From assembly GCA_965217585.1 (NCBI GenBank), contig OZ244561.1:384001-448000 (forward strand): DNA of 64,000 bases. Direction: 5' to 3'. This DNA is from Candidatus Latescibacterota bacterium. Lineage in GTDB: Bacteria > Latescibacterota > UBA2968 > UBA8231. Each line of letters begins with the position of its first letter. The first letter of the stretch is position 1. The notes under the pieces were generated by a model, which saw only the letters and a program-made list of their open reading frames with translations, ran no database searches and was not told the DNA's origin. This document shows positions 9,656 through 64,000 of this stretch, in pieces. The position numbers and the translations under genes are program-made.

Positions 9656-11647
9656 ATGCGCACTTTCTTTTTTTTAGCCCTGATTACGCCCCTGCTGGTG
9701 CCGGGCTCTGGCTGGGGTCTGACCATCTATCGGATCGGTGGGTCCGATAGGGCCCCACCTCCAGAAGCAGAGCTAGCGGGAGTGGAATTCGTGTCGCTGA
9801 GCTGGGAGGAGGCGGCCCAGGGGTTCAACGGCAAGATGCAAGGACTGACGCTGGAGGAAGCGGGGATCGCGCCCGTGTTGGTCTCCCCGGATGACAACCT
9901 CGCCCTCACCGCCCCAGCTAGAGGAGGTGGCCCGGCCGGCTTTGCCATCAAACGCGGGCGGAACATCTACGGGGCGCTCGTGGCGGATAAATTGGTCGAC
10001 AAGATTGCCGACGGAGATCCAACCACTGCTTTTCGCCTCGTCGATGACGAGGGACTGGCGAGGTTCTCTTCCGCTGCACCCGGAACCTTCCTGCTCGATT
10101 TGGGATGGCGCTTTCCCATAAACAGGCTTCGCTTCTATCCCACGCCCCAGTATACGGGACGGAACGTCGAGGAGTTTGCCGTCCAGGTCGTAGAGGGCAG
10201 CTCCACCGGAGCCGTTGGATCGAGGACGGCCAACTGGCAAAAAATATTCCATTCTCTCTTCCCCGACGGCACCCGCAGCCAGAGGGTAACGGGTGCGCCG
10301 CGAGACGAGTGGACAATCGATGTAGTCGGCTCGGTGTCGCCCAATCGGCAGCAGGTCGTCGATTTTCTCTTTCCCACCCGCACTGTCGAGTATGTGGCGC
10401 TGACCGTTGCCGGGCAAGAAATGTGGGAAGTCGCCGAATTGGAAATCTACGGCGAGGGCTACGTGCCTCGGGCGTTCTACCAATCCCAAGTACTGGACTT
10501 GGGCGCGACCTCAACCTTGGGGACGCTCCGCTGGATCGGCTGCAAAGACGACGATGCCCACGTCGAAATCCGCACCCGTAGCGGCTCGGACCCGGATCCC
10601 GACCGCTACTGGCGCTTCACTGGCCGCGGCGACGAGCAGACCTTCCTCGATGATGAGGGCCAGCCCCTAACCCGCACCGCCTACCAAAGCCTGTCCTTCG
10701 GCCAAGGCCCCATCACCCCGGATCTGGACCACTGGAGCGACTGGTCGGGGGGCTACTCCTTCGCCGACAGCTTGGGGACCCCCATGACCTCGCCCGGACC
10801 GCAGCGCTTCGTGCAACTGCAGGTCGCTTTCGCCACCAAGGGCGGTCAGGCCGGGGGGCTCGAGCTAGTAGAGTTTCTCACCTCCCAGCCGCCGATAAGC
10901 GGTCCAGTGGTCGCCGAAGTCTGGCCGGTGGCAGTGGAGCCGGGCCAGATGACGAGCTTTGTCTATGCCTTGCGGCCGGAGCTGGGGCGAGAGACCAGCG
11001 GCTTCGATCAGCTAGTGCTGGAGACCTCGGGTCGGTTTGTCGGAGTGGATTCGGTGCGGATCAACCAAGAGCGGCAGGCTCTTGTGTTGGTGGAGCCGCT
11101 CCAGGACCAGCGACTGGTGGTGACCCTGCCGCGGCTGGGTCCGGCCGACAACCAGAAAGTGGTGGAACTGTTCTTTCGGGCCCAGAGTTTCCACTTTGGC
11201 ACCTGGTTCCACGGGGCGGTGTTCGACTCGGAGCGGCCCCTGGAGGTGGGGCAGCGGGTGGAGGCGGGCGATGCGCTTTTTCAGTTGGAGGGCAATCAGG
11301 TGTGGGTGGGCATCCAGCTAGGCGGTGGGCTGCTGCATCAAGTGGGGGTGGAGGCACCGGTACTCACGCCCAATGGGGACGGGGTCAACGACGTAGTGGC
11401 CGTCGAATACACCGTGCTGAAGTTGGCCCAGGCCGGGACGGTGGAGGTGACCGTTTTCGATATATCGGGGCGCCGGGTGCGGCAGCTCTACCGGGGCCGG
11501 GATCGCAGCGGCCGATATGGTCGGTTGTGGGATGGCCGAGGCGCGGACGGTCGGGTAGTAGGGCCGGGTTTGTATGTATATCGAGTGCGCGTTGCCGCCG
11601 ATCAGGGCTGGGAACAGCGCAGCGGCCTCATTCTCGTCGCGTATTAG
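9656..11647 (+). CDS. Secreted discoidin-like/FlgD-Ig domain protein, paralog 1 (LTIYRIGG type)
   Basis: Signal peptide, LTIYRIGG, DGDPTT, DLGxxFPINRLRFYP, WEVAELEIYG. C-terminal TPNGDGVND, FDISGRRVR, WDG, PGLYVY. Confidence 0.85.
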   Translation: MRTFFFLALITPLLVPGSGWGLTIYRIGGSDRAPPPEAELAGVEFVSLSWEEAAQGFNGKMQGLTLEEAGIAPVLVSPDDNLALTAPARGGGPAGFAIKRGRNIYGALVADKLVDKIADGDPTTAFRLVDDEGLARFSSAAPGTFLLDLGWRFPINRLRFYPTPQYTGRNVEEFAVQVVEGSSTGAVGSRTANWQKIFHSLFPDGTRSQRVTGAPRDEWTIDVVGSVSPNRQQVVDFLFPTRTVEYVALTVAGQEMWEVAELEIYGEGYVPRAFYQSQVLDLGATSTLGTLRWIGCKDDDAHVEIRTRSGSDPDPDRYWRFTGRGDEQTFLDDEGQPLTRTAYQSLSFGQGPITPDLDHWSDWSGGYSFADSLGTPMTSPGPQRFVQLQVAFATKGGQAGGLELVEFLTSQPPISGPVVAEVWPVAVEPGQMTSFVYALRPELGRETSGFDQLVLETSGRFVGVDSVRINQERQALVLVEPLQDQRLVVTLPRLGPADNQKVVELFFRAQSFHFGTWFHGAVFDSERPLEVGQRVEAGDALFQLEGNQVWVGIQLGGGLLHQVGVEAPVLTPNGDGVNDVVAVEYTVLKLAQAGTVEVTVFDISGRRVRQLYRGRDRSGRYGRLWDGRGADGRVVGPGLYVYRVRVAADQGWEQRSGLILVAY

Positions 11648-11760
11648 CCGCTTGAGAAATTGGCCCGACCGACGCCAAAAACCCCGTTACCACTAGCTCC
11701 TCCGCGGGGTAGATGCTAATGGTGGGCAGACAGCGTCACAACCCTCTAGACATTATTTTA

Positions 11761-11789
11761 TTGATTTGCTGTTTGAATTTCCGTATAAA
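11761..11789 (+). promoter_or_regulatory. Putative sigma70 promoter
   Basis: TTGATT (11761-11766), 17-bp spacer, TATAAA (11784-11789) in an AT-rich intergenic region. Confidence 0.5.
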
Positions 11790-11791
11790 AA

Positions 11792-11994: not shown

Positions 11995-12060
11995 AATGGA
12001 TGAAAAGAGGTGGGGAGGTTGTTTGTGTTTCGCTATTCATCATTGAGAAAGGAAAAAACA

Positions 12061-12948
12061 ATGGCACGCCATATCATGGTCGCTACTCTAGCGTTCACCC
12101 TGATCGCGGGAGGTAGCGTATCCGCACATTCCCCCGAAGACGAAATCTTTAGCGCCTTCCAGTGGCCCCCCGGTCTCGAGCCCGTAATGGACGGAGTTGG
12201 CAATGAGTACGGTATCATTCCCGACCCCTACTGGCAGACCACGGAACAATTTCCCGACACCCAAGGAGGCAGGGATATTGACCCGTCGAATTTCGACGCC
12301 AAGGCCACGATAACCTATAGTCTCGGCACCAACTTGATCTACGCGTACAGCGAGGTGTTCGACGACATCAGCATACCGCCCGACACCTGGCAGTTCATGA
12401 TTGATGCCGACCACAGCGGTGGCGATTGCTATCCCGACACCGACGACAATGCTCGTTGGCACGCCTCCGCTTGCCAGCAGTACGAGGTCTACAACCACAT
12501 TCCCGGCGAGGAGGGAGACGATCCCGTCCACTTCTTCTGGGGGACCGCCACCTGGCTGCCCGAGGAGGGCTGGTACAACATAACATGCACCTTTGACGGC
12601 GAGAAAGACGGTGCGGGCACGGTCTACAGGGAAGTGCAGTTTATGCCCCTCGACGACCTCAACTCTCCTGCTGGACCAGGGGAGTCCGTCACCCACACCC
12701 TAGCTGAGGGCGAGATCATAGGGCTCGGGTACAACTGGATGGACTACGACGAAGTGGGCCGCGAGGTTCAGGGGGGCGGCTGGCAGGCCTTCTACAACCT
12801 GAGCCAGCACGACCGGATGTACCGCAGCGGCGACGGTGCCTGCGACTTCTTCCTGGCACCCGTGGATGAGACGGTCGACTTCAGCGCGATGCCCACCGCG
12901 GTCGAAGCCACGACCTGGGGCCGGATAAAGACCGGATTCGTCCAGTAG
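12061..12948 (+). CDS. Secreted acidic protein (DOMON/CBM9-like fold suspected) with a C-terminal TAVEATTWGRIK motif
   Basis: AAGGA RBS, signal peptide ending VSA-H, IDADHSGG, GEIIGL, and C-terminal PTAVEATTWGRIKTGFVQ. Confidence 0.8.
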   Translation: MARHIMVATLAFTLIAGGSVSAHSPEDEIFSAFQWPPGLEPVMDGVGNEYGIIPDPYWQTTEQFPDTQGGRDIDPSNFDAKATITYSLGTNLIYAYSEVFDDISIPPDTWQFMIDADHSGGDCYPDTDDNARWHASACQQYEVYNHIPGEEGDDPVHFFWGTATWLPEEGWYNITCTFDGEKDGAGTVYREVQFMPLDDLNSPAGPGESVTHTLAEGEIIGLGYNWMDYDEVGREVQGGGWQAFYNLSQHDRMYRSGDGACDFFLAPVDETVDFSAMPTAVEATTWGRIKTGFVQ

Positions 12949-13044: not shown

Positions 13045-14994
13045 ATGCGGCTGCCACACTCAATCCTCTTGGCGACACTGATCCCATCCCTGGCTTGGGG
13101 GCTCACCATATATCGCATCGGCGGCAATCCGGATTACGACCATCCGCTGGTAGACAGTACGGGGGTAGAGATCGTCAAGCTGACTTGGGAGGAGTTCGCC
13201 CAAGATCCCAAGCTGGAGGCGTGGGGAGTGCGCGCCAGCCAAGAGGGAAAACTCGTGCCTGTATTCGTCAATCCAGACGAGAATCTGTCCCTCGGCGCTA
13301 TCGAGAGGGGTGAGGGCAAAAAATTCTATCCCGAACAGAGATTTGGGTCGTCGGATGGCGCGGGGCCCCGGGGCCACAAGTACGGGACGATTGCCAAAAA
13401 CGATTTCACCAACTGGACCGTGGACGGCGATCCAGCCACCTATATGTGGCCGTCTGATCTGCTCACCGACCGACTGAACCCCAAGCTCGTCATGTTCCTC
13501 GGCGCTACTTTTCCAGTGAATCGGGTTGTGGTCTATCCCCGTCCAGATCATCCCGAGCGCTACGTCGAGGACTATACCCTGTACGCGTGGCGCAAGGGCC
13601 AAGTCATGGGGCTGCACCGCAATTCGGGCGACGGACAAATATTGGCGCGGGGCCGAGAAAATCGAGATCCCGTCATTGACATGAGGTTTCCCACCATGAT
13701 CGTCGATCGGCTCATGTTCAATATCGACAACTTCGACGAGCCGTACATGGCGAACCGAATATGGGAAATAGCCGAGTTCGAAATATACGGCGAGGGCTAC
13801 GTGCCCAAGGGATTGTACATTTCCAAGGCCCTTGAACTGGACGCCGTGTCCAGTCTGGGCGGAATCCGCTTTTTCGGCTCCAAGGACCGCGACGCCAAGT
13901 TGCGGATTCGCACCCGCAGCGGCAGCGACGAAGACCCCGACCGCTACTGGCGCCTCACCGGTCGCGGCGACGAAAAGAGTTTTCTCAAGGACAACGGTCA
14001 GCCGCTGACACTCTCGGATTACAATAACCTGCAGGGCGGCAAGGGCGGCATCACCACGGACTTGGACAACTGGAGCTTCTGGTCGGGACCCTACGATCTC
14101 GCCGACAGTCTGGGGGCCCCAATTACCTCCCCGAGTCCGCGGAAGTTTTTCCAGCTGCAGGTCGAATTCTTGCCCCAAGGTCTGGACGGAGCCGGAGTGG
14201 ATTTTATCGAGTTTCACATCACGCAACCGCCGGTGGCTGGACGCGTGATCGGAGAAATTTGGCCCACCGAGGTGGCACCAGGCCAAGAGACCCCCTTCGT
14301 CTATGCCATGCTGCCGACCTTTTCCGGAGGCGAGGGCGGGTTTGATCGGATCGTGCTGGAGACGACCGGACAGTTCACCGGCGTGGATTCAGTCCGCATC
14401 AACGAGGAGCGGTTGGAAGATCTAGAATGGGGATTACTCGCACCGCTCGAAGACCAGCGGCTAGTGCTGTCACTGCCGCGGATAGACCGGACCAAGAGCG
14501 GCAGACTAGTGGAGGTCTTCTTTCAGGGACGGGCATTCCGCTTCGGCACAATATTCTCCGGGCAGGTTTTCGACGATCAACGGCCTCTCGAAGTAGGGCA
14601 GTTCGTCGAGGACGGAGATGCGACCTTCCGACTGGACAGCAACCAACGCTCCGTGGGCATTGCGCTGAACGGCAATATCGTCAGCAAGGTGGTAGCGAAT
14701 CCGCGGGTGGTGACACCCAATGACGACGGGGTCAACGACCAAGTGCGCATCGAGTACACGTTGCTGGAACTGGCGGGCGTCGGAGAGGTGAAAGTGAGTA
14801 TATTCGATCTGGCGGGCCACCAAGTACGCCAAGTTTACCAGGGAGAGGACAGCAGCGGCCGACACGCGCAACTATGGGACGGGCTGGACGAAGACGATCA
14901 GGTAGTGGCGCCTGGGATATATCTGTATCGGGTGCAAGTAGACACGGATGCGGGACAGGAAGAGCGCAATGGTCTGGTTGCGGTAGTTTTTTAG
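13045..14994 (+). CDS. Secreted discoidin-like/FlgD-Ig domain protein, paralog 2
   Basis: LTIYRIGG, DGDPAT, FPVNRV, WEIAEFEIYG, TPNDDGVND, WDG...PGIYLY. Confidence 0.85.
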   Translation: MRLPHSILLATLIPSLAWGLTIYRIGGNPDYDHPLVDSTGVEIVKLTWEEFAQDPKLEAWGVRASQEGKLVPVFVNPDENLSLGAIERGEGKKFYPEQRFGSSDGAGPRGHKYGTIAKNDFTNWTVDGDPATYMWPSDLLTDRLNPKLVMFLGATFPVNRVVVYPRPDHPERYVEDYTLYAWRKGQVMGLHRNSGDGQILARGRENRDPVIDMRFPTMIVDRLMFNIDNFDEPYMANRIWEIAEFEIYGEGYVPKGLYISKALELDAVSSLGGIRFFGSKDRDAKLRIRTRSGSDEDPDRYWRLTGRGDEKSFLKDNGQPLTLSDYNNLQGGKGGITTDLDNWSFWSGPYDLADSLGAPITSPSPRKFFQLQVEFLPQGLDGAGVDFIEFHITQPPVAGRVIGEIWPTEVAPGQETPFVYAMLPTFSGGEGGFDRIVLETTGQFTGVDSVRINEERLEDLEWGLLAPLEDQRLVLSLPRIDRTKSGRLVEVFFQGRAFRFGTIFSGQVFDDQRPLEVGQFVEDGDATFRLDSNQRSVGIALNGNIVSKVVANPRVVTPNDDGVNDQVRIEYTLLELAGVGEVKVSIFDLAGHQVRQVYQGEDSSGRHAQLWDGLDEDDQVVAPGIYLYRVQVDTDAGQEERNGLVAVVF

Positions 14995-16011: not shown

Positions 16012-18117
16012 ATGAAGATTTGTTTCTTCCTCGCGGTTGCGCTTTCGTGGTCGGCTGCCCTGGCACAGACCATCACCGTTGGCCAAGGTCCGCGCCAGTG
16101 GCAGGACGGAGGCGGAGGGCTTGACCCGCAGTTCCCCGTATCGACCACCGAACTCGCCACCGGCAACACCCCGGGCGGCGTCATCGATTTCGCGTTCGAA
16201 TCCGGGTGGATCTTCCTGGAGCAGATCGATCCCGGCAGGAATCTGGCTTTGGGTGCGGAGGACAGAGGGGGGGGAATGAACTCTCCCCTGCCCTCGATCT
16301 CCGATAAAGCGCTGGAGGCCATGATAGACGGCAAGCCGGAAACCGCTTTTCGCCGCAAGGCTACGACGGCCGGAGAGTTAGTCATCGCCCGCGGCATCAT
16401 CATGGATTTGGATCTGGGCGCGCGCTTTGGCGTCAACCGGATCCGGTTCTTTCCGCGCAACACAGTGCGCGAGGCCCGGGAGTTCAAGTTCGAAAACGAC
16501 TTCATGCGAGGCTACTCCCTGGCCCTGAACGACGGCAGCGAGGAGACCTCTGTAGAGGGCCGACCTCAGTACCTCAATCTCATAAGGGTGGAGGACAATA
16601 TCGAAGCGGTCGTCGATCTGGAAATCCCGCTCCAGTACGTGCGCTTTATCCGGCTGAAGTCGGAGTCGAATATCGGTTTCGAGGTCGACGAAATCGAGAC
16701 CTACGGCTCTGGTTTCGTGCCCGAAGCCCAGTACCTGTCCGACATCTTCGACCTGGAGGATCTGGCCATCTGGGGCAACCTGCGCTGGGCCGAGCGCCGC
16801 GAAGGTGTACCCGGGCTTTCGGCTATCCGCGTTTTCACGCGCTCGGGCCGGGACGAAACGCCCTACGTCTTCAACCGGCTGAACGCCAATCAGCTAGGCG
16901 TGCCTTGGAAGGCGGATGCCGAAGTCGACGAAATCCTCCTGGACGCCCTGCCCGTTGACGAGGCTTTTGACCTGTTCAATTCCCAGCCCCAAGCGACTAG
17001 GCAAAACCTCATTCTCTCCCAAGCCGACTACGAAGGTCTAGCAGACCAGCAAAAAGCACCCTTGAGAGACGACGTGATCAACTGGAGCACTTGGTCTCCC
17101 CCCTATCCGGCAGAGGGGCGGAGTGCGGTGGGGACCCCCATCATCTCGCCTGGACCGCGGCGCTACTTCCAGTTCAGAATCGACTTTGCCAGCCGCGACC
17201 TGAGTTCGGGCAGCGGCGTTGATTCCCTGTCCTTCGACTTTGCCAGCCCAGTGCCGGCCGAGCGCATCGTCGGCGAAATTTTTCCCAGGGATGTGCCGGC
17301 CGGAGAGGTGGTGGAATTCACCTATGGAATCTGGGCCGGTCTCCGGCCGCAGGACACTAGCTTCAATCGCTTTGAGATAGCCACGCCGAGCATACTCGAA
17401 GAGATCGGCCGGATAGAGCTGCGCGATGCGCAGGACAATCTCATCCAAGGAGAGGATCTCGCGGTCCTACTTAGCGAGATACAGCCCCCCTTTATCAAGG
17501 GCGATTTCAGTATCGAGAGCACGGCGGACGGCCGCGTCGTCGTCGGTTTTCCGGAATTGACCAACGGCGATCTGCTCAAGATCACCTTCAAAACCTCGGT
17601 CCTGAGATTTGGGCAGACCTTTGCCGGCCGCGCCTGGCTCGCGGACCCGGCGAGCCAAGAAGGTGCCCAGCTACCTCAGCAAGTCGTGCCGGGCAACGCC
17701 GCCCAGCTAGCGCCAGATGATGTGGATCCGCGCCCGGTGGGCAGCGAAGATCTGACCTTGGTGGATAATAGCCTCTCGGTGCGCACGGCCATAGAGGGTT
17801 CGCTGCTCGGCCAGATCCGGGCAGTACCCCCAACCTTCACGCCCAACGGGGACGGGGTCAATGATACCACGGTTATCCACTACGACGTGCTGCGGCTGGG
17901 CGTGGCCGCCCCGCTGAGGGTAGAGATCTATGACCTGAGCGGCCGCTCAATCGCCGCCTTCGCCGGCGACCGGGCGAGCGGCCGCTTCTCGAGTTCGTGG
18001 GACGGGATCGATTCGAACGGCAACGCAGTGCCGCCCGGCATCTATCTATTCCGCGTTTTCCTCGACACCAATGCAGGCTCTGACGCAAAGACCGGGGTCG
18101 TTGGGGTGGTGTACTGA
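16012..18117 (+). CDS. Secreted discoidin-like/FlgD-Ig domain protein, paralog 3 (divergent subtype)
   Basis: Signal peptide ALA-Q, DGKPET, DLGARFGVNRIRFFP, SPGPRRYFQ, TPNGDGVND, PPGIYLF. Confidence 0.85.
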   Translation: MKICFFLAVALSWSAALAQTITVGQGPRQWQDGGGGLDPQFPVSTTELATGNTPGGVIDFAFESGWIFLEQIDPGRNLALGAEDRGGGMNSPLPSISDKALEAMIDGKPETAFRRKATTAGELVIARGIIMDLDLGARFGVNRIRFFPRNTVREAREFKFENDFMRGYSLALNDGSEETSVEGRPQYLNLIRVEDNIEAVVDLEIPLQYVRFIRLKSESNIGFEVDEIETYGSGFVPEAQYLSDIFDLEDLAIWGNLRWAERREGVPGLSAIRVFTRSGRDETPYVFNRLNANQLGVPWKADAEVDEILLDALPVDEAFDLFNSQPQATRQNLILSQADYEGLADQQKAPLRDDVINWSTWSPPYPAEGRSAVGTPIISPGPRRYFQFRIDFASRDLSSGSGVDSLSFDFASPVPAERIVGEIFPRDVPAGEVVEFTYGIWAGLRPQDTSFNRFEIATPSILEEIGRIELRDAQDNLIQGEDLAVLLSEIQPPFIKGDFSIESTADGRVVVGFPELTNGDLLKITFKTSVLRFGQTFAGRAWLADPASQEGAQLPQQVVPGNAAQLAPDDVDPRPVGSEDLTLVDNSLSVRTAIEGSLLGQIRAVPPTFTPNGDGVNDTTVIHYDVLRLGVAAPLRVEIYDLSGRSIAAFAGDRASGRFSSSWDGIDSNGNAVPPGIYLFRVFLDTNAGSDAKTGVVGVVY

Positions 18118-18178
18118 AATTTTCGGGTGCGCTCCACGCAGATCACTGACAAAGGCAATACCTGTGGAGGGATTCTCT

Positions 18179-20920
18179 ATGCGTAGCAAACACTGGTTGA
18201 CTCATCTGCTGGCAGGCGGGCTACTCCTCGCGTGCCTAGATGGGGTCTGGGCGCAGGATTACGGCACCCGCTTGGGGGTGCAGCGCGGGGGTCGAGTCTC
18301 GTACGAACCGCAGGGACCGGGCGTGCTCTTTGGCGCTCTGGATCCCACGGTCAAGCGCTGGTATGTGCCCCAAGAACTCTACAACGAGTACCGCTGGCAG
18401 ACGTGGCAGTACACCAACTACGCGCGCGACAATTACCAGCGCTATGTATCCACGGCCCTCGAAGGCGATTACCTCTATGACCTGTACGGCAACTTCGTCA
18501 CTCAGGGCTGGCTGATTTACGACATGCGCCGACAACAGCCTTCAGAGTTCGGCAGCACGGTTTTTAAAGACAGTCGTTACGGCGGCTGGTTCAACCGCGT
18601 CCTCATCGCTTCGGACACCAAGGACCAGTACCACTACGCCGTGACTATCGGAGACCGCATCCGCACGACCCTGACGCCCCTGACCTTCTCGAAACCGGCC
18701 TTCAGCGGCATCCAAGCCGACTTCGCCTCAGACAAGTACCAAGCCACGGTCCTCATGTCGCGCATCAGCAATCCCAACCCTCCTACCAGCGTCGGGGTGA
18801 CGGGCATAACCAATACCACCGACTTCGTCGGCGGCCAGCTCACCAGCCAACTCGGCGATTTTGTCACCGTGGGCGCCACCTACCTCAACGCCCATCACTC
18901 TAATACCCTGCTGGAGAGCTTTGTCGGCAGCCGCTTTAGGGGCGACCTCACCGTCGACCAGAACGGCACCGCCATCAATCGGATCGAAATCGTGCTCGAA
19001 GACGACTCGCCTGAAGACGGAGAAGGCGGGGCCGCGCTGTTCTCGCAGAATGTCATCATCACATCGGTCGAGGACTTCGGGACCCTCGGCCGCGAGACCG
19101 TCACCGGCAAGGAGATCAACTTTGTCCCCCTCATCCAGGGCGGTTTTCAACGGCAGGGTTTTCTCGCCGCCGACGGGGATGAGAGCATCCGCCTGATCTA
19201 CGATTTCTCCGACCGCTCGTACTCGGGACCCGATCCGGCGACCATCGTCGAGGTCAGCTTCGAATTAGTGCTGGCCAACGACTACAAGGTGTCGATGACC
19301 TCGAACAACCAGCTCGACAAAAGAGAAACCCCACATCCACTGGAGATTGCCCGGGCCGACGGCAATGTGCGCGACACTTCAAACCAGCAGGTGGTGCGCT
19401 TCGCTTACGGTCTGCCCACGGCCAACCAGATTTTCGGCTTTCACCTGAAAACGACCAATCTACTCGGTTTCGACACCTACGCCGAATACGCCGTCAACCA
19501 CCAGTTCCGCAAGTATCCCAACTCCACTTTGGGTGAGCTGAACGAGGAACACGAGTCGGCCGCTAGGCGGGCGGAGGCCTGGATAGTCAATGTGTCGAGG
19601 AGTGAATATCCCTTGTTCGCGTACGGCGAGGCCTTCAGCATGGAAAGGCACTATGCGACCAGTATTTTCCTCAGCGACCAACGAGGCTCTTTTGACTACT
19701 CGACTAGGACTAGGTTATTCGAATTCGTCGAAGACAACGACGACCAAGACCGCATCCCCGACTGGGGGCGCTCGAACCAGATTGGCCCCGACATTGAGGT
19801 CTTCCCGGGCTGGGACGAGAACAACGACTTCATCAACGACTTCAACCAGAACGACAATCGGGTGCGGGAAAACCAAATTCCCGACTACGAAGAGCCTTTT
19901 TTGCGCTATCACAGCGATCGCCCCGAATTCCTCTTCGGCATCGACTTGAACAACAACGGCTGGATCGACCGCTTTGAGAACGACGAGCAGCCCGACTTTC
20001 CCTACAAGAGGGACCACCGAGGGTACAATGCGTATGGCGGCATCCATTTGATGCCGGAAGCGCGCTTGACCGTGGGGCGCACTCGGCAGTGGCTGCTCTC
20101 CGCGAATCAGCGCAACGAAACCAATTACGCGCTTTTCACTTTTGACCGGGACATCGCCGGCTTTGGGCGCATACGGGTTTTCAACTTCCTGAAAAAGGCG
20201 CGCGACAACATAGCCGACGACCGCATCGCGCCCCTACCCTATTTCAAAGGGCCGCAATTGCCCGTCAAGGACATCCTGCCAGCGCAGGACACCTATATCA
20301 ATACCCTGTGGCTGGGATTTGACTACACCGGCATCCCCTTCTTAAAGGTGGAGAACAAGCTCAAGTACGAAATCCTGCACCAGTTGCTCGCGGAGGAGGC
20401 CCTGGCCGAGCAGAGCGCCCGCAAGGACGCGCGCTTTTTCGGCCTGATCAACAAAGCCGCGTATTCGCTGAACCTACTGGGCGTGAATTTTCTGCCGCGA
20501 GTTAAGAGCGAGTACCTAGTGGATCAGCCCTTTCTCAGGACGGAAGACAAACGCAAACAGTGGTCGCCGAGTTTCTTTCTCATCACCCGTCTGCCACTGA
20601 TGCCGCACACCCAACTCGAGGCTGGCCTAGAACAGAGTTTCAAATGGGAGTTGCGAGCCGCCGAGGACGAACTGGTGGATTTGCAGGCCGAGGGAGTGGA
20701 GACCGGCGATTTCGGCGAGACTATCTTTGCGGTCCAGACCACCAATACCACCAACTATCTGGGCTACAAGTTGGTCACCCAACTCGGGTTTCTGTACGAG
20801 CGCAGAAGTCTGGAAGTGGTGAAAAAAAGGGCCGTGGCAGGCGCTGAAGACGTCTTCGAACTGGGGGATCGGATGGCGACGGGTTTCACCACCTTTATCA
20901 CGATTTACGCCGGCCTCTAG
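18179..20920 (+). CDS. Large secreted protein, putative outer-membrane beta-barrel with Asp/Asn Ca-binding-like loops, paralog A
   Basis: GGAGG RBS and ATG 18179, signal peptide VWA-Q, motifs DENNDFIND and DLNNNGWID, amphipathic strands, ends FITIYAGL. Confidence 0.75.
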   Translation: MRSKHWLTHLLAGGLLLACLDGVWAQDYGTRLGVQRGGRVSYEPQGPGVLFGALDPTVKRWYVPQELYNEYRWQTWQYTNYARDNYQRYVSTALEGDYLYDLYGNFVTQGWLIYDMRRQQPSEFGSTVFKDSRYGGWFNRVLIASDTKDQYHYAVTIGDRIRTTLTPLTFSKPAFSGIQADFASDKYQATVLMSRISNPNPPTSVGVTGITNTTDFVGGQLTSQLGDFVTVGATYLNAHHSNTLLESFVGSRFRGDLTVDQNGTAINRIEIVLEDDSPEDGEGGAALFSQNVIITSVEDFGTLGRETVTGKEINFVPLIQGGFQRQGFLAADGDESIRLIYDFSDRSYSGPDPATIVEVSFELVLANDYKVSMTSNNQLDKRETPHPLEIARADGNVRDTSNQQVVRFAYGLPTANQIFGFHLKTTNLLGFDTYAEYAVNHQFRKYPNSTLGELNEEHESAARRAEAWIVNVSRSEYPLFAYGEAFSMERHYATSIFLSDQRGSFDYSTRTRLFEFVEDNDDQDRIPDWGRSNQIGPDIEVFPGWDENNDFINDFNQNDNRVRENQIPDYEEPFLRYHSDRPEFLFGIDLNNNGWIDRFENDEQPDFPYKRDHRGYNAYGGIHLMPEARLTVGRTRQWLLSANQRNETNYALFTFDRDIAGFGRIRVFNFLKKARDNIADDRIAPLPYFKGPQLPVKDILPAQDTYINTLWLGFDYTGIPFLKVENKLKYEILHQLLAEEALAEQSARKDARFFGLINKAAYSLNLLGVNFLPRVKSEYLVDQPFLRTEDKRKQWSPSFFLITRLPLMPHTQLEAGLEQSFKWELRAAEDELVDLQAEGVETGDFGETIFAVQTTNTTNYLGYKLVTQLGFLYERRSLEVVKKRAVAGAEDVFELGDRMATGFTTFITIYAGL

Positions 20921-30138: not shown

Positions 30139-30371
30139 GTTCTTGGCTCCAGGTAAATCAGCGTCTTCCGAAGCTCCCATGGCCAAGAGTAGAGCAAGCC
30201 GTAGGGGTCGTCCCGGTTTGACCGATTGGTCCAGCGGGTGGTATTGTAGGGATAGCGGATGCTCAGCTGAGCTAGGAAGACTGGAGCAAGCCGGGGCATG
30301 TGGATGGTCGCCCCGGCCCACGCGACGAGCCAAAAAATCCCCAGGCGTCTGAACAGGTAGTCGAGCGGCAC
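30135..30371 (-). CDS. Small hypothetical protein with a hydrophobic N-terminal segment (78 aa)
   Basis: GTG 30371 preceded by GAGGG. Hydrophobic LGIFWLVAWAGA segment. Its stop overlaps the next start (GTGA). Confidence 0.4.
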   Translation of the reverse strand: MPLDYLFRRLGIFWLVAWAGATIHMPRLAPVFLAQLSIRYPYNTTRWTNRSNRDDPYGLLYSWPWELRKTLIYLEPRT

Positions 30372-43609: not shown

Positions 43610-43846
43610 CTGGGACAGTACTCCCGTTCAACTCAGCCCTAGGTACAGGTTTGAGCGCGTCTATCCTCTAAGCCGTAGGAAAAAGTTTGTCAGGAGGCGA
43701 AAATCGTTGTAAAATGCAGAGTTATGTTACAATCGGGTGGGGCGGCTTGGTCGGGAATGTAATCATCTCCTGTGCAAAGGGCAAAAAACCAGCCGGTCTG
43801 TGGTTCCATACCAAGGTTTTGCAACAAATGGGGAAAGCAGACAACA

Positions 43847-47493: not shown

Positions 47494-49397
47494 ATGCGTA
47501 GCTTCACAGTGACTTTCTTTTTGGTTGCGCTGGCCGCGAATCTGCTGGTTCCGGACTCGGGTGGGGGCCTGACCATCTATCGGATCGGTGGCTCCGATAT
47601 GGACCCGCCCCCGGAAGCGGGCATGGAGGGGGTGGAATTCGTGCCGCTGAGTTGGGAGGGAGCCGCCCAGGGCTTCGACGGGCAGGTGCAAGGGCTGACG
47701 ACAGAGGGGGAGCAAATCGAACCGTTGCTGATTACACCGGATGACAACGTGATGCTCGGCGCCCTGGCCAGGGGTGGGGGTGCCGTCGGCTTCACGATCT
47801 CAGGTGATGCCTATTTCAAGTTTGAACTGCTCGACGCCATGACTGACGGCGACCCAGCAACCACATTTAACCTGCGCGATGCCGGCAAAGGTCTGGAGCG
47901 ATACCCCCGCACCGCAAGCTCGAGGGTCCTCTTCGACCTGGGGACGCGCTTTCCGATAAACAGGGTGCGAATGTATCCGGACCCCCGGTTCCCGGAACGG
48001 TATGCCGAGGAATTCTCTGTGATGGCCGTGGTCGGGCCCTTGACGCCAAGGCTCTTTCCCGGCGAAGCTACCAAAGTGCTCAGGTCGGAGACGGCCAATC
48101 GGAACCAGGTCGTCGATTTCACCTTCCCTCGCCGCAACCTCGCCCAGCTTCTGTTGCACGTGCGCTCGCCGGGCTTTTGGGAGATCGCCGAGTTCGAAGT
48201 CTACGGCGACGGCTACGTGCCGGAAGCGACGTACCGCTCCGCGGTGCTGGATCTGGGGGGGGCTCGACCCTGGGGCCGCTGCGCTGGATCGGCTTCCGGG
48301 ACCGCGACGCCCGGGTCAAGATCAGCACCCGCAGTGGCCTGGACGAGGACCCCAACCGCTACTGGCGCTTCACCGGCCGTGGTGACGAGCGGACTTTCCT
48401 CGATGAGCAGGGCCAGCCCTTGACTCGCACGGCCTACGAGAGTCTGTCGTCCGGCCGGAGCGACATCACCCCCGACCTGGACCACTGGAGCGCCTGGTCG
48501 GGGGTCTACGATTTCGCCGACAGCGCCGCTACGGCTATGGTCTCGTCGAGCCCGCGGCGGTTCCTGCAGCTGCAAGTGGAGTTCGTGCCCAAGGGACTGC
48601 ACGGCGGCGGACTCGAGATGATGGAGTTCAGGGTATCGCAGCCGCCGGTGAGTGGCCCAGTGGTGGGAGAGATCTGGCCAGTGGAAGTGGAGCCGGCCGC
48701 GGTGACATCGTTCGTCTATGCCTTGCGGCCGGAGCTGGGGCCGGAGACGACCGGGTTCGACCAGCTGGTGCTGGAGACCTCGGGGAAGTTCACCGGCCTG
48801 GACTCGGTGTGGATCAACCAGGAACGCGCCGACATTGATTTGCTAAGCGTGCAAGACCAGCATCTGGTAGTGGGACTGCCGCGGATGGGACCGACCGACA
48901 ACCGCAAGCTGGTGGAGGTATTTTTCCGGGCGCAGGTCTACTACTTCGGCACCATGTTCCAGGGGCAGGTGTTCGACTCGGAACGGCCGCTTGAAGTGGG
49001 GCAGTTGGTGGAGGCGGAGGACGCGACCTTCCGGCTGGACAGCACGCAGCTGTGGGTAGGCATCCAGCTTGGAGGTGGACTGCTGCGCCAAGTGGGGGTT
49101 CACCCGCCGGTGGTCACCCCCAATGGGGATGGCATCAACGACCAAGTACACATCGAGTACACCGTGCTGAAACTGACGGAGGCCGGCGCGGTGGAGGTGG
49201 CCATACTCGATCTGTCGGGCCGCCGGGTGCGGCAGGTCTACCAGGGCCGGGACCGCAGCGGGCGTCATGGCCGGGCATGGGACGGCCGGGGCGAGGACGA
49301 GCGCGTGGTGGCGCCGGGCTTCTACATGTATCAGGTGCAATTGGACGCGGACGAGGGGCGGGAAGAGCGCAATGGGCTCATCTCGGTGGTGTATTAG
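47494..49397 (+). pseudogene. Secreted discoidin-like/FlgD-Ig domain protein, paralog 8, frameshifted in a G8 tract
   Basis: The 5' half (ORF 47494-48423) and 3' half (ORF 48177-49397) join at G8 48255-48262. One extra G gives DLGGGSTLGP, colinear with paralog 1 DLGATSTLGT. Confidence 0.85.
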
Positions 49398-54883: not shown

Positions 54884-54906
54884 TGTCCTCCCGTGCCCTC
54901 CCTCCT

Positions 54907-56677: not shown

Positions 56678-57086
56678 CCCCGGAGACCGCGTGCTCGATA
56701 GTTACGCGCTTTTAGCCTATCTGGAGAATGAAGCGGGTGCCCTTCAGGTTAAATCCCTGCTCAGCCAGACAGAAACAGGCCCAAGCCGCCTGTGGATGTC
56801 CATCGTCAATTTGGGAGAAGTCCTCTATATCACTGAGCGTGAACGGGGCTTGGCCCACAGCCGCAATGTCCTAGCGGCTGTGGAGCAATTGCCGGTGGAC
56901 ATGGTCCTCGCCGACCGCGCCCATACTTTGTCTGCCGCCCATATCAAGGCCCGTTTCCCGCTCTCCTATGCCGATGCCTTCGCCGCCGCTCTGGCCCAGA
57001 CCAAGGGCGTCCCTCTCGTGACCGGCGACGAGGAATTTAGCCGGGTCGAATCCCTCGTCGCCATTGAGTGGCTTCCTAGGCATTAG
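56670..57086 (+). CDS. vapC: VapC PIN-domain toxin
   Basis: Motifs VLDSYALL, VNLGEV, LSYADAFA, LVTGDEEF. Confidence 0.92.
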   Translation: MNDPGDRVLDSYALLAYLENEAGALQVKSLLSQTETGPSRLWMSIVNLGEVLYITERERGLAHSRNVLAAVEQLPVDMVLADRAHTLSAAHIKARFPLSYADAFAAALAQTKGVPLVTGDEEFSRVESLVAIEWLPRH

Positions 57087-57144
57087 TTCGTTGGCAGTTC
57101 CGTGGGGCAGTCAGTTTCGACAATTTGAATCCATAGGTGGCAAT

Positions 57145-60068: not shown

Positions 60069-62228
60069 ATGGCAGGGCTTCTGTCCTTTTTCGTTTTTGC
60101 TATGCTGCTCAGTGCTGCGCACGTATTTGGTGCAACCGAATACCGTCTGGGCGGGATTAACGGCAACGATTGGCAGGCGGCCCTGACCGCAGAGAGCTTC
60201 TTCCAGATCCGGGATGCCGACGGCCAGCCACTGCGACAAGTACCGGTGGGGATATCGCCCTTTGGCGCGGGAGCCGACACGCTGGTCGATTTCTCCGGCA
60301 CAGCGATCCAACCCCGTTTGATTGACTCCTCCGTCAATATCGCCCGGGCCGATGTGGACGCCAGCAAGACCCAGATCCCCCTGCCCTATATGCCCAGTTC
60401 GAGAGTCCTTACTAATAATTGCGGTCAGGCGCAATTACACGCCAATACGATCAAGCTAATGCTGGACGGCGATCCCGCTACGGCCACTTTTCGCACCTTT
60501 GTGCAACGGGCCGGGGGCCGGCCTGGCGATGGCTTTACCTGGCGGGGGGCCGTGGTCTTTGATTTTGGCGGCGCAATCCCGATCAATCGCATCCGCTTCT
60601 ATCCTCGCCTGAGTCAGCGCGAAGATCGCCAACTGATCGAATCCCTGCGGGAACCGGCTCCAGATATCGAGCGCTTTGGCCAAGACAGCTTCCTCGACAA
60701 TTTCCTCGCTTGGTACGAGATCCGCACCGGCGACAATTCGGTCGTCTTTGCCCCAGATCCATGCAGCGGCACCAGCACCTTCCTCTTTGACAGCTCCAAG
60801 CGCGACATAGGCGCTGTGGCCACCAGCAAGCGACGCACCGTCTTGGGCGACTTGCGGTGGGTGCGGAGCGGCGATCCATTGCTGACGGTGCTGAAAACCA
60901 CCCATGAAAACCTCGACCCGGTCGTCGACCTGCGCTTTCCCACCCGGTCGACCCGCTGGCTCACCTTGCGTGCCTTCCCCTTGCGCGACTATGAAGTCGC
61001 CGAATTCGAAATCTACGGCGAGGGCTATGTCCCCGAGACCACCTACCTCACCCCCATCCTCGACTTCGGCCAAGCCGTCACTTGGGGCAAAATCCGCTGG
61101 GAAGGCGAAGTGCCCGACGGCACCCGCATCGAAATTCGCACCCGCACCGGCCACACCTCTGATCCGCTGCTCTACTTCGCACCCAATATCAACGACGACC
61201 TCATACCCATCACCCACGCCGAACACGCCAAAATCGATATCGCCGCCCGACTAGTCCCCACCTACGATGCCGACCACTGGAGCTTCTGGTCGTCGCCCTA
61301 TGAATTTGCCGCCGGCCAGCGCAATCCCAACCAGCCCGCCCGCGCCTGGCAGGACGGCATCCTGCTGTTGTCGCCCGGTCCCAGCCGCTACATCCAAATC
61401 GCCATCAAGCTCTTCGCCGACTTCAACGTGGCCCCTCGCCTCGACCAACTCACCCTGCAGTTGAGCGAGACCCTGTCGGCGCAGGCCCTCGTCGGTGAGA
61501 TCTGGCCCATTGAGGTCGCCTCCTTTGAACCGACCCCCTTTACCTATGTGGTCCTACCCACCCTCATAGACGACAATGCCGGCTTTGACCGCTTGGAAAT
61601 CCGCACCCATATCCGGGCGCACGCGGTGCGTTCGGTGCGCCTTGATGGCCAGCCAGTGGACTTAGACCTGTTCGTCCCGCACCTGCTCGATGATCGCCTC
61701 ATCGTGTCCTTCCCGCCGCTGACCGGCAGCGCCGACAGCTTCAAGCAGGTCGAGGTCGACTTCGACGTGCCGGTGCTGCGTTTCGGCACCGAGTTCAGCG
61801 GTTGGGTGTTCAGCAGCACGGATCCCGATCAGATCCGGCAGCGCATCGATCCGGGCAACGCCACGTTCCGCTTTGCCGGCAACTTGCTGGCGGTCAACAC
61901 GCCGGTGGGGGGTGACTTGCTGGTGGATGTGCGGGTGCCCGAGGTGTTCACGCCCAACGGCGACGGGATCAACGAGACCTTACCCATCGCTTACAAGCTG
62001 CGCGAAGTCACAGTCGATCGGCCGGTACAGGTGCGCATCTACGACTTGGCGGGTCGGCTGGTGGCGCACCTACCCGTGTTCAAGGCCCGCAGCGGGGTCT
62101 TTATCCAAGAGTGGAACGGCCGCGACGGGCAGGACGCCTTGGTCCAACCCGGCACCTATATCTACGAATTGACCCTCGATTCCGAGGAGCAACACACCCA
62201 ACAGGGCGTCTTTGCCGTCGCCTATTGA
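60069..62228 (+). CDS. Secreted discoidin-like/FlgD-Ig domain protein, paralog 9 (TEYRLGG subtype)
   Basis: AAGGAG RBS, signal peptide, DGDPAT, PINRIRFYP, EVAEFEIYG, SPGPSRY, TPNGDGINE, PGTYIY. Confidence 0.87.
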   Translation: MAGLLSFFVFAMLLSAAHVFGATEYRLGGINGNDWQAALTAESFFQIRDADGQPLRQVPVGISPFGAGADTLVDFSGTAIQPRLIDSSVNIARADVDASKTQIPLPYMPSSRVLTNNCGQAQLHANTIKLMLDGDPATATFRTFVQRAGGRPGDGFTWRGAVVFDFGGAIPINRIRFYPRLSQREDRQLIESLREPAPDIERFGQDSFLDNFLAWYEIRTGDNSVVFAPDPCSGTSTFLFDSSKRDIGAVATSKRRTVLGDLRWVRSGDPLLTVLKTTHENLDPVVDLRFPTRSTRWLTLRAFPLRDYEVAEFEIYGEGYVPETTYLTPILDFGQAVTWGKIRWEGEVPDGTRIEIRTRTGHTSDPLLYFAPNINDDLIPITHAEHAKIDIAARLVPTYDADHWSFWSSPYEFAAGQRNPNQPARAWQDGILLLSPGPSRYIQIAIKLFADFNVAPRLDQLTLQLSETLSAQALVGEIWPIEVASFEPTPFTYVVLPTLIDDNAGFDRLEIRTHIRAHAVRSVRLDGQPVDLDLFVPHLLDDRLIVSFPPLTGSADSFKQVEVDFDVPVLRFGTEFSGWVFSSTDPDQIRQRIDPGNATFRFAGNLLAVNTPVGGDLLVDVRVPEVFTPNGDGINETLPIAYKLREVTVDRPVQVRIYDLAGRLVAHLPVFKARSGVFIQEWNGRDGQDALVQPGTYIYELTLDSEEQHTQQGVFAVAY

Positions 62229-62340
62229 AATCGGAAGCGTGGAAGAAATTTTGTTTCTAAACGCTGAGCTTGGGTGTATACTTACTCTTCGCAACCTTTG
62301 AACTGCGCGTTTGTATTGGTGAAGCAGCAAGGAGGGCGTT

Positions 62341-64000
62341 ATGGCAGGCATAGTGTTGCTGTGTTTTTGCAGCGTCTTGCTCGGTGCTGTGCCCGTGTTG
62401 GGGGGGACGGAATACCGTCTAGGCGGGACCGATGGCAACCCTTGGCAGGCCATCCTAGCCGGGGAAAGCGCCTACCAAGCCTTTGCCGCTGACGGCCAAG
62501 TCGAGCGCCAAGTATCGGTGGGGGTTTCGCCCTTTGGGGCAGGGGCCGATACGCTGGTTGACTTTTCTGCTACCTCGATCCAACCTCGGCTTATTGACCC
62601 CAGCGTCAATATCGCCCGGGCCGATGTCAATGCCGGCAGGACCACCATCCCCTTGCCCTATATCCCCGGCTCCAGAGTCCTCAACAACAATGGTTGCTGG
62701 TCCTGGGGCAATTTTCAACCTTCGATCAAGCTAATGCTGGATGGCGATCCGACCACAGCCGCCTTCCGCACCTTTGTCCAAAAGGTCGGCTCGCCGCCGG
62801 GCGTGGGCTATACCTGGCGCTCGTCGGTGGTGTTCGATTTTGGTGCTGGTGTGCCCATCAACCGCATCCGCTTCTATCCTCGCCTGAGCCGGAGAGAGGA
62901 TCACCAGTTGATCCAGACTATGGACGTACCCACGCCGGAGGCGGAGAGCTTTGGCGAAGACAGCTTCTTGGCCAACTTCCTCGCTTGGTATGAGATCCGC
63001 ACTGGTGATAACTCCATCGTCTTTGGCAATGACCCCTGTAGCGGCGACGGCCGTAGCGGCGCCAGCAGCCGCAACGGCAGTGTGGCGACGAGCAAACGGC
63101 GCACCGTCTTGGGCGACTTGCGGTGGGTGCGCAATGGCGATCCCCTGCTGACGGTGCTGGAATCCACCCGCGAAAACCTCGACCCCGTCGTCGATATGCG
63201 CTTTCCCGTCCGCTCGACCCGCTGGCTCACCCTGCGCGCCTTCCCCTTGCGCGACTATGAAATCGCCGAATTCGAAATCTACGGCGACGGCTACGTCCAC
63301 GAGACCACCTACCTCACCCCCATCCTCGACTTCGGACAAGCCGTCACCTGGGGCAAAATACGCTGGGAAGGCGACGTGCCCGCCGGCACCCGCATCGAAA
63401 TTCGCACCCGCACCGGCCACACCCCCGATCCGCTGCTCTACTTCGCTCCCAATATCAACGACGAAATCGTACCCATCACCCGCGCTCAATACGACGAAAT
63501 CGACAAAGCCGCTCAATTGCTGCCTGTCTACGATGCCGACCACTGGAGCTTCTGGTCGTCGCCCTACGACTTTGCCGCCGGTCAACGCAATCCCAACCAG
63601 CCCGCCCGCGCCTGGCAGGACGGGATCCTACTGCTGTCGCCCGGTCCCAGCCGCTACATCCAAATCGCTATCAAGCTCTTCGCCGACTTCAACGTGGCAC
63701 CTCGCCTCGACCAACTCACCCTGCAGTTGAGTGAAACCCTGTCGGCGCAGGTCCTCGTCGGTGAGATCTGGCCCATTGAGGTCGCCTCCTTTGAACCGAT
63801 CCCCTTTACCTATGTGGTCCTACCCACCCTCATAGACGACAACGCCGGCTTTGACCGCTTGGAAATCCTCACCCATATCCGGGCGCACACCGTGCGCGCG
63901 GTGCGCCTTGATGGGCAGCCAGTGGACCTAGACCAGTTCGTCCCGCATCTGCTCGATGATCGCCTCATCGTGTCCTTCCCACCGCTGAGCGGCAGCGCTG
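62341..64000 (+). CDS. Paralog 10, a recent tandem duplicate of paralog 9 (3' truncated by window edge)
   Basis: AAGGAGG RBS, ATG 62341, MAGIVLL...GGTEYRLGG. The frame stays colinear and often near-identical to 60069-61730 up to the window end. Missing from the ORF track because it has no stop in the window. Confidence 0.87.
   Translation, partial: MAGIVLLCFCSVLLGAVPVLGGTEYRLGGTDGNPWQAILAGESAYQAFAADGQVERQVSVGVSPFGAGADTLVDFSATSIQPRLIDPSVNIARADVNAGRTTIPLPYIPGSRVLNNNGCWSWGNFQPSIKLMLDGDPTTAAFRTFVQKVGSPPGVGYTWRSSVVFDFGAGVPINRIRFYPRLSRREDHQLIQTMDVPTPEAESFGEDSFLANFLAWYEIRTGDNSIVFGNDPCSGDGRSGASSRNGSVATSKRRTVLGDLRWVRNGDPLLTVLESTRENLDPVVDMRFPVRSTRWLTLRAFPLRDYEIAEFEIYGDGYVHETTYLTPILDFGQAVTWGKIRWEGDVPAGTRIEIRTRTGHTPDPLLYFAPNINDEIVPITRAQYDEIDKAAQLLPVYDADHWSFWSSPYDFAAGQRNPNQPARAWQDGILLLSPGPSRYIQIAIKLFADFNVAPRLDQLTLQLSETLSAQVLVGEIWPIEVASFEPIPFTYVVLPTLIDDNAGFDRLEILTHIRAHTVRAVRLDGQPVDLDQFVPHLLDDRLIVSFPPLSGSA

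Follow-up and report, generated by a model that had tools for sequence, protein, structure and literature searches.

The SusC/SusD loci of Bacteroidota combine a TonB-dependent barrel that carries a plug with binding proteins of the SusD/E/F type, which are lipoproteins. Another described arrangement is that of type-B cargo of a type IX secretion system (T9SS), as in SprB-SprF of Flavobacterium johnsoniae and PG1035-PorP-PorE of Porphyromonas gingivalis. According to the available sections of one article, type-B tails are kept intact and are bound to PorP-like barrels, PorP/SprF is a 14-stranded barrel of the FadL type, and SprA is associated with a prolyl isomerase (PMC9143113). According to the accessible part of another, the motifs of the type-B tail are required for secretion and do not set shuttle specificity, and F. 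johnsoniae has 12 type-B substrates (PMC12618676). In this study, we analyse a stretch of 64,000 nucleotides (hereafter the window; positions 384,001 to 448,000 of contig OZ244561.1, assembly GCA_965217585.1) from an uncultured, sponge-associated Latescibacterota bacterium. The window contains ten paralogs of a modular protein family, which we call L, and two of their ~900-amino-acid (aa) neighbours, which we call barrels (B). Our preferred reading, held tentatively and at somewhat less than an even chance, is that the L proteins are T9SS type-B-like lectins docked on giant barrels that stand in for PorP/SprF, that a SurA-like foldase assists, and that the CBM32 heads of the L proteins have been diversified for glycan capture.

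The resemblance to the SprB-SprF/PorP systems lies in the C-terminal Ig-like domain of ~90 residues, which exceeds the cut-off of the Pfam family CHU_C, in the cargo genes that adjoin the gene of an outer-membrane barrel, in the SprA, PorU and PorV-family genes of the genome, and in an associated prolyl isomerase, as reported for SprA in the available sections of PMC9143113. However, the barrels are ~900 residues long and belong to no known family, whereas those sections describe a 14-stranded FadL-type barrel, and one genome holds 171 L members compared with the 12 substrates given for F. johnsoniae in the accessible part of PMC12618676. In addition, the L tails are below the type-B cut-off of NCBI, the organism is outside Bacteroidota, and the motor genes were not detected by models that were silent on control genomes as well. 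In common with the SusC/SusD loci, there are many diverged cassettes per genome, a large barrel together with surface proteins of carbohydrate-binding type, and glycan-active genes nearby. Unlike SusC/SusD, the barrel has no TonB-dependent receptor or plug signature, the L protein has a T9SS-type tail and is not a lipoprotein, and no regulator is seen in the window cassette. We found no published description of a lectin repertoire arranged with giant barrels, and our literature search on Latescibacteria or Latescibacterota with type IX secretion or T9SS returned no paper. The available sections of two Latescibacteria genome papers (PMC12993501, PMC4454575) mention neither discoidin nor FlgD, those of PMC12993501 mention no lectin, and secretion systems are limited in both to a single mention of type VI in PMC4454575.

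The first-pass annotation, made from the letters of the window, had proposed ten paralogs that share one plan and cover roughly a third of the window. All ten are present as open reading frames (ORFs), and their summed span is 19,932 bases, or 31% of the window:

9656..11647, + strand: paralog 1, 663 aa, ~640-aa class with the LTIYRIGG start; CHU_C 31.6 bits (cut-off 27), 951 bits to the family hidden Markov model (HMM)
13045..14994, + strand: paralog 2, 649 aa, ~640-aa class; CHU_C 39.6 bits
16012..18117, + strand: paralog 3, 701 aa, opens a tight L-B-B-L-L row; CHU_C 36.6 bits
23677..26196, + strand: paralog 4, 839 aa, long class, discoidin head duplicated; F5_F8_type_C 41.3 bits (cut-off 28.2), CHU_C 27.7 bits
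26248..28101, + strand: paralog 5, 617 aa, the copy used for the structure model
41720..43609, - strand: paralog 6, 629 aa, ~640-aa class, C-terminal residue Q and not Y; 41720 is the gene end
43844..45739, + strand: paralog 7, 631 aa from the first ATG (most likely start 43844); the longest ORF begins at 43772
47494..49397, + strand: paralog 8, split by a one-base frameshift into ORFs 47494-48423 and 48177-49397
60069..62228, + strand: paralog 9, 719 aa, at the head of a tandem run of four ~717-aa copies that have the TEYRLGG start; CHU_C 46.3 bits
62341..64000, + strand: paralog 10, cut by the window edge; the genome version has 717 aa and a tail, and two more copies follow outside the window

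The ten places stand, with three corrections: copy 6 lies on the minus strand, so that 41720 is its end, copy 7 most likely starts at 43844, and copy 8 is frameshifted. A single HMM built from eight window copies aligns end to end with all ten paralogs, and the family matches are far beyond chance (E = 0 to 1e-19). The layout is that of paralog 1, which consists of a signal peptide, a CBM32-like head, a core and a CHU_C/FlgD-Ig tail. When 11 window ORFs were scanned, CHU_C (PF13585) exceeded its cut-off of 27 in all nine that hold a tail (27.7-46.3 bits; profile positions 2-86) and FlgD_ig passed its own cut-off in eight of the nine. No match was obtained for the remaining two, which are the front half of copy 8 and copy 10 in its truncated form; the tail of the latter was found beyond the window edge.

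The description as a ten-member repertoire did not survive a count across the genome. With a threshold of at least 100 bits, the HMM of the eight window copies recovered 171 L ORFs among all ORFs of the 7.32-Mb genome (384,555 bases, 5.25%), so that the window, with its ten copies, shows a small local part of a very large family. Of the 171 copies, 154 have a hydrophobic stretch at the N-terminus and 163 a C-terminal Tyr, mostly as VAY or VVY. The long class to which paralog 4 belongs forms a cluster of 46 members with a median length of 857 aa. Judged from the sequence search, the global size of the family is modest: the L core profile matched 1655, 788 and 336 representatives among 1.84 billion sequences at E 1e-3, 1e-10 and 1e-30, respectively. 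Among the matches listed, the relatives are named only as hypothetical protein or as gliding motility-associated C-terminal domain protein. The taxon labels of the relatives and of the related loci are mostly Candidatus Latescibacterota, with some metagenome-assembled genomes labelled Gemmatimonadota. This DNA is found in sequencing runs of sponge, coral and marine metagenomes, which come from nine studies.

The motifs that bound the variable domain had been likened to discoidin, or F5/8 type C, folds, and both profile and model bear this out. The family profile matched F5/8 type C chains of the PDB at E 1e-12 (best 1.1e-12) and the FlgD Ig domain at 1e-7; the Pfam F5/8 type C cut-off was reached by one of the 11 window ORFs, namely paralog 4. 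Paralog 5 was modelled with AlphaFold2 on an alignment of 57 sequences, and the resulting model is all-beta with a pLDDT of 90.4. It comprises a signal helix (residues 2-17), N-terminal strands (26-73), a CBM32 fold (~77-230), a beta-sandwich core (~233-510) and the tail (514-617). Residues 77-230 superpose on the CBM32 module 4a42_A with Z 16.1 and a root-mean-square deviation (rmsd) of 2.2 A over 124 of 127 residues, and ~40 other CBM32 or discoidin entries follow at Z 13-15, including NanJ, GH84C, chitosan-binding and lectinolysin lectin modules. The head thus resembles the CBM32 modules of Clostridium perfringens (GH89, GH84C, NanJ) and the chitosan-binding modules of Paenibacillus over ~125 residues (Z 13-16, rmsd 2.2-3 A; L profile against CBM32 sequences E 1e-12 to 1e-5, identity 13-20%). 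Unlike those modules, it is joined to a beta-sandwich core and a sorting tail and not to a glycoside hydrolase. The core domains gave generic FN3, Ig and macroglobulin-like structural matches, the C-terminal domain is an Ig domain, and the ESM Atlas clusters returned for the L core are all unnamed.

Two other identities were considered and set aside. An enzyme reading, which the first-pass annotation had named as a possible outcome, found no catalytic family in Pfam, NCBIfam, PDB or Foldseek. For an identity as the flagellar hook-capping protein FlgD, the match is confined to the Ig-like domain (PF13860, positions 13-77 of 79); the FlgD equivalog models scored 17-27 bits on L proteins compared with cut-offs of at least 230, and the Pfam scan of the window found no flagellar genes.

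It had also been suggested that a conserved first strand, LTIYRIGG or TEYRLGG, might complement a neighbouring molecule. According to this explanation, a polymer or fibre on the surface would be built of L subunits, which join as the N-terminal strand of one completes the fold of its neighbour. The strand does stand directly after the signal peptide in the ~640-aa and ~720-aa classes, several paralogs lie in a row, and usher-like barrels are among the structural matches of the neighbouring barrel. However, the strand proves to be a trait of sub-families: a strict xxxYRxGG start is found in 13 of the 171 copies and a loose YRxG in 28, and HMM positions 1-60 are gapped in 62-75% of members. In the monomer model of paralog 5, which is confident throughout, the strand (residues 26-32) already lies within a sheet, and the fold is not visibly incomplete. 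Because the strand is paired in the monomer and missing from most members, donor-strand polymers are argued against, and we regard them as very improbable.

The FTPNGDxxND tail had been compared with type-B T9SS C-terminal domains, and the CHU_C scores agree with that comparison. A TPNGD-type pattern is present in 141 of the 171 copies, and in our reading of the listing most of the 27 copies that miss the pattern have a one-residue TPNGD variant. With the type-A model TIGR04183 (cut-off 23), three of the four copies tested reached only 16-17.5 bits. We consider the L tail, on its sequence, to be a divergent, type-B-like sorting domain. By comparison, 94 other ORFs of the genome share only the C-terminal Ig-like domain with L; these have a tail of the NYPNPFN type (PNPFN motif in 77 of the 94) and end in K, R or E, and seven of eight tested reached the cut-off of TIGR04183. 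Although the window holds no T9SS core gene, the search that had been proposed found sprA and a gene of the PorV/PorQ family elsewhere in the genome. SprA is encoded in a 2153-aa frame (604.8 bits, cut-off 200), PorU reached 627 bits (cut-off 420), and directly beside PorU lies a PorV/PorQ-family gene (NF033709 239 bits, cut-off 90; PorV equivalog 154-161 bits, cut-off 250), one of four PorV/PorQ-like matches in the genome.

Long arrays of other ~700-aa proteins with type-A tails (PNPFN, ending in K or R or E) occur at ~6.79-6.85, 3.64-3.66 and 0.80-0.82 Mb of the genome, and their sequences make them a probable second expanded set of T9SS cargo.

Between paralogs 3 and 4 lie the two large neighbours:

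18071..20920, + strand: barrel 1, 949-aa ORF, probable start Met at residue 37 (~base 18179), 48% identical to barrel 2
20935..23664, + strand: barrel 2, 909 aa, modelled

The barrel family has 80 genome copies of 862-1083 residues, which occupy 3.0% of the genome, so that L and barrel genes together make up ~8%. The model of barrel 2 has a pLDDT of 69.7 and many long antiparallel strands, well over 14. Its Foldseek matches are outer-membrane barrels only (MtrB, SlpA, LptD, FimD, FhaC and porins; TM score 0.16-0.35), and the best of them, including MtrB, LptD and FimD, reached E 2e-9 to 1e-6 at 6-10% identity. A second structural comparison (VIA) gave a flat list at Z 12-14 with none prominent. 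Neither barrel matched Pfam or NCBIfam at E <=0.01, the barrel profile found nothing among PDB sequences at E <=1, and the ESM Atlas returned unnamed clusters only, with the nearest named entry, DUF6029 at 0.89, to be taken as a lead only. From the model, the ~900-aa neighbours are large outer-membrane barrels outside known families. An assignment to TonB-dependent receptors or SusC was rejected, as no plug or receptor signature was found with Pfam, NCBIfam or the PDB profile; such receptors appear only among the many generic structural matches of barrel 2. Two strongly conserved segments of barrel 2 have a pLDDT below 50, namely residues 34-138, which are N-terminal and rich in aromatic residues, and residues 520-611, an acidic, D/N-rich stretch that looks like calcium-binding loops in its sequence. 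Both segments may fold only together with a partner. Our genome also encodes a diverged group of barrels that are 24-29% identical to barrel 1.

MtrB (MtrCAB), LptD (LptDE) and FimD are comparable in size to barrel 2 and work with a protein that is lodged in them or passes through them, although TM scores and identities are low and there is no sequence relationship. This likeness raises the alternative that the barrels themselves export or assemble the L proteins independently of T9SS, with L threaded into or through the barrel as in MtrB-MtrA/MtrC, LptD-LptE or the usher-pilin systems, and with the SurA-like foldase as a periplasmic chaperone. That all three of these partner-enclosing barrels are among the best Foldseek matches is in its favour, but the matches as a whole form a flat, generic barrel list (Z 12-14, TM score 0.2-0.35). 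The segment 34-138 is highly conserved and modelled with low confidence, as an interface or plug might be, a foldase gene accompanies the loci, and the L core co-diverges with the barrel, as described below; however, for 38 of the 171 L genes the nearest barrel is more than 10 kb away. The C-terminal residue is aromatic in 163 of the 171 L proteins, and T9SS motor genes were not detected (the control genomes being silent too), whereas the tail exceeds the cut-off of a Pfam T9SS sorting domain and the translocon genes are present. We consider this explanation unlikely.

The co-occurrence of L genes with barrels and a foldase, on which the first-pass annotation had relied, is found both within the genome and across genomes. 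For 133 of the 171 L genes there is a barrel at a distance of 10 kb or less, compared with a mean of 26 and a maximum of 39 in 200 trials of random placement. An L gene is equally close to 72 of 80 barrels (17 by random placement) and to 32 of 38 foldase genes (8.5 by random placement). When neighbourhoods were chained at <=5 kb, 41 contained both L and barrel (148 L genes), 15 contained L only (23 L genes) and four contained barrel only. Tight same-strand rows recur as LB (ten times), LLLB (eight) and LLBL (five); the L-B-B-L-L row of the window, with spacings of 12 to ~60 bases, occurs once. A fixed place of L clades relative to the barrel was sought, and no clear pattern emerged. In a sample of 151 genomes from the phylum, 82 match the L core profile, including all 63 of the same family and none of the 30 and 19 of two other families. 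Barrels occur in 95, that is, in all 82 L-positive genomes and in 13 with barrel only, and SprA occurs in 146, including all 82 that are L-positive. Among 67 related loci of public genomes, a barrel lies within the 8 kb fetched in 44 (28 of 43 among loci of at least 15 kb).

These observations bear on another alternative, which is that L proteins are ordinary T9SS cargo, released or shuttled by the PorV-like barrels and never touching the giant barrels. According to this view, L and barrel are co-regulated in loci that resemble polysaccharide utilization loci (PUL), with the barrel as a glycan import channel and L as scouts. The four PorV/PorQ-like matches would supply shuttles, and glycan-related genes lie nearby (GHL10, BNR, Kelch); yet the barrels have no plug of TonB receptors or other transporter family signature. 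Arrays of L only are found in the window (copies 9 and 10, with two beyond the edge) and in the public loci L054, L068 and L067, which is in its favour, whereas the tight spacing of the L-B-B-L-L row is not. In a first-look count of candidates over 64 same-family genomes, L and barrel numbers rise together (Spearman 0.55; 0.84 without four outliers dropped post hoc), a trend that, like the other counts across genomes, is not a formal test because related genomes are not independent. Further evidence comes from 49 adjacent pairs of an L gene followed by a barrel gene. Divergence of the core follows that of the barrel (Spearman 0.53, 0 of 300 permutations), and the tail (0.21, 1 of 300) and head (0.19, 3 of 300) follow it weakly. 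That the tail is uniform, with the lowest column entropy of the protein (2.16 bits), and tracks the barrel poorly would be expected if one common machine read it as a signal, as this alternative has it, but the co-divergence of the core with the adjacent barrel is against it. On balance, we consider this alternative unlikely. The sequence comparison of these pairs fits a generic tail read by one machine together with a core matched to the barrel, and the weak tracking by the tail agrees with the accessible part of PMC12618676, in which tail motifs are needed for secretion and do not set shuttle specificity.

Under our preferred reading of barrel-docked T9SS cargo, L proteins would be modular, non-enzymatic glycan-binding proteins composed of a signal peptide for Sec, a CBM32/discoidin head in one or two copies, a beta-sandwich core and an Ig tail of the type-B class (FTPNGDxxND ... 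VAY). We infer T9SS export, docking on the barrel, sugar binding and import in the following order. Sec would deliver the L protein to the periplasm, where the type IX translocon (SprA, PorU and a PorV/PorQ-family protein) would recognise the tail and move L across the outer membrane. The tail would be retained as in other type-B cargo, and the co-encoded ~900-residue barrel would hold L non-covalently at the surface in place of the 14-stranded PorP/SprF anchors, which the genome seemingly lacks; the conserved core, and not the tail, may set the barrel specificity of each L protein. The SurA-like foldase of the same loci would aid the folding of barrel or cargo. Finally, the heads would catch different glycans, with the sponge host or sea water as the source, and the barrel may admit glycans to the periplasm. 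The repertoire would have grown by duplication, by faster change of the heads and by gene conversion between copies. The earlier proposal of a ligand-binding repertoire exported with the barrels and a foldase is thus partly upheld: co-encoding and the CBM32 fold are observed, export with the barrels is putative, and window copies 6-10 lie at least 20 kb from the barrels.

Several results weigh against this reading. Of four copies tested with the NCBI type-B model TIGR04131 (cut-off 35), three scored only 18.2-28.5 bits and the fourth, paralog 4, was not matched. GldL, GldM and PF12081 had no match in the genome, and GldK was matched only over its sulfatase-like C-terminal part (<=81 bits, cut-off 350); the control genomes were silent or unspecific, so that these misses are uninformative. 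The PorP/SprF models PF11751 and TIGR03519 likewise had no match in the genome, their sensitivity being unproven since the control genomes were silent too, and for this reason an absence of motor and PorP/SprF genes is not demonstrated. The barrels are not themselves PorP/SprF, as they have ~900 residues and more than 14 strands, compared with ~300 residues and 14 strands in that family, and match neither model. The 38 L genes that lie more than 10 kb from any barrel include window copies 6-10 (copies 1-5 are near the barrels; copies 6-10 are at 20-41 kb), and the public related loci without a barrel are tandem arrays of L only, such as the three named above. SprA is also present in both families that have neither L nor barrels (in all 30 genomes of one and all 19 of the other) and therefore does not depend on the L/barrel system. 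One of the four outliers, the sister-genus genome G060, has 102 barrel matches, diverged and ~990 aa long, and few L candidates; at its loci L084-L086, the barrels adjoin proteins of 630-650 aa with type-A-like tails. The co-divergence of core and barrel can arise from the duplication of whole cassettes, and the core has more columns than the tail. Sugar binding by the heads is predicted from their modelled fold.

At several L or barrel loci, a neighbouring protein has the sulfatase-modifying-enzyme-like part that is also found in GldK, with 55-81 bits compared with a GldK cut-off of 350:

genome 1306757-1307437, 4439137-4439841, 4783669-4784184, 5326657-5327079 and 6952807-6953256: proteins with the GldK-like part

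The first-pass annotation had also contrasted a constant scaffold with a variable domain, and had allowed that variability might prove uniform along the protein. Entropy and identity do differ along its length. In the five intact ~640-aa copies of the window, pairwise identity is 0.08-0.45, with many gaps, over the discoidin loops (paralog 5 residues 86-205) and 0.45-0.73 over the C-terminal two thirds. Column entropy over 168 members is 2.84 bits in the head (26% gaps), 2.63 in the core and 2.16 in the tail, so that a gradient from head through core to tail is the better description, and the dichotomy does not hold. In the six-copy ~720-aa sub-family, nonsynonymous divergence (pN) is 0.11-0.17 in the first 300 residues, at a synonymous divergence (pS) of 0.31-0.50 and a pN/pS of 0.27-0.49; in the rest of the protein, pN is 0.01-0.08, pS 0.12-0.26 and pN/pS 0.06-0.35. 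Positive selection on the head was not seen at the resolution of this analysis, as pN/pS is below 1 in every segment of the alignment; the older sub-family is saturated (pS 0.53-0.73).

The sequences of the ~720-aa sub-family are mosaic. The closest partner of each copy switches along the gene, and copy 9 shares an identical tract of 194 bases with a copy 1.77 Mb away (genome 2218111-2222554) at an overall identity of 84.4%. Taken together, the switching of partners and the small synonymous divergence seen in the constant part point to gene conversion, and these alignments suggest that the ~720-aa paralogs undergo it between distant loci.

A wider claim, which we put forward as doubtful, is that the barrels are a new class of outer-membrane machine that anchors T9SS-delivered lectins and imports their catch, as a Latescibacterota counterpart of the Bacteroidota Sus system, in which duplication, and gene conversion between loci up to 1.8 Mb apart, would have diversified the heads of more than 170 paralogs. 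Such a programmable repertoire for glycan capture would occupy ~8% of the genome in L and barrel genes. If our preferred reading holds, T9SS type-B sorting would work outside Bacteroidota with a completely different and far larger anchoring barrel, and the glycan-harvesting logic of PUL-like loci would have arisen independently. One lectin-like family takes up ~5% of the 7.3-Mb genome and its barrel neighbours ~3% more, which points to a way of life that is central for a widespread uncultured phylum. For studies of glycan recognition, the L family supplies a natural library in which CBM32 heads share one scaffold, the barrel represents a structural family of which no relative has been solved, and the mosaic copies offer a tractable case of concerted and diversifying evolution in a single bacterial genome.

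The one-base frameshift of paralog 8 adjoins a run of eight G (G8) at 48255-48262. A near-identical contig of run X15, which is possibly the source of the assembly, agrees with the window at the break, while the gene is intact in contigs of three other sequencing runs. In those of X19 and X1, which belong to other studies, an extra C after the G8 run restores the frame, and the contig of X3 has an extra G plus a G>C change. Since X15 agrees with the window and the other three differ, the break is either specific to the strain or an error that is also in the source data. Phase variation by the length of the G run was considered and is not supported, because two runs carry an extra C after the run and the third an extra G with a substitution.

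The remaining genes of the window are as follows:

12010..12948, + strand: secreted accessory protein of no known family, probable start ~12061, ends GRIKTGFVQ; 23 genome copies
28129..30333, - strand: DUF6785/DUF6784 polytopic membrane protein with at least 10 hydrophobic segments; 78 genome copies
39922..41604, - strand: SurA-like double-parvulin peptidyl-prolyl isomerase (the foldase), Rotamase_2 73 bits, SurA_N_3 weak; 38 genome copies
30465-32327, 38074-39909 (- strand) and 57064-59910: FG-GAP/ASPIC-UnbV proteins, one with TPR repeats; family of 56 genome copies
32401-34377 (13 genome copies) and 45835-47460 (unique): family-less large proteins with no Pfam or NCBIfam relative
34539-35609: IS110-family transposase
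1-9600 and 49545-55914: ordinary metabolic flanks, by Pfam

Several of these families also tend to lie near L genes. Copies of the accessory protein are within 10 kb of an L gene in 21 of 23 cases, those of the FG-GAP/ASPIC family in 32 of 56 (random 12), and those of the DUF6785 protein, a possible inner-membrane partner, in 35 of 78 (random 17.5). Searched against PDB sequences, the proteins at 32401-34377, 12061-12948 and 45835-47460 gave chance-level matches only. Sigma-54 promoters (TGGCAC-N5-TTGC, <=1 mismatch) were considered and rejected, as the window has two matches compared with 5.2 by chance, neither of them beside a family gene. The flanks encode an HpcH aldolase, a luciferase-like monooxygenase, a transaldolase, an M55 D-aminopeptidase, a Gfo/Idh/MocA oxidoreductase, a Kelch protein, a GHL10 protein, hydantoinase A and B and an M19 dipeptidase. 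The IS110-family transposase has one other ORF in the genome, at 5835931-5837001, which is 99.7% identical over its full length with a score equal to that of the self-match.

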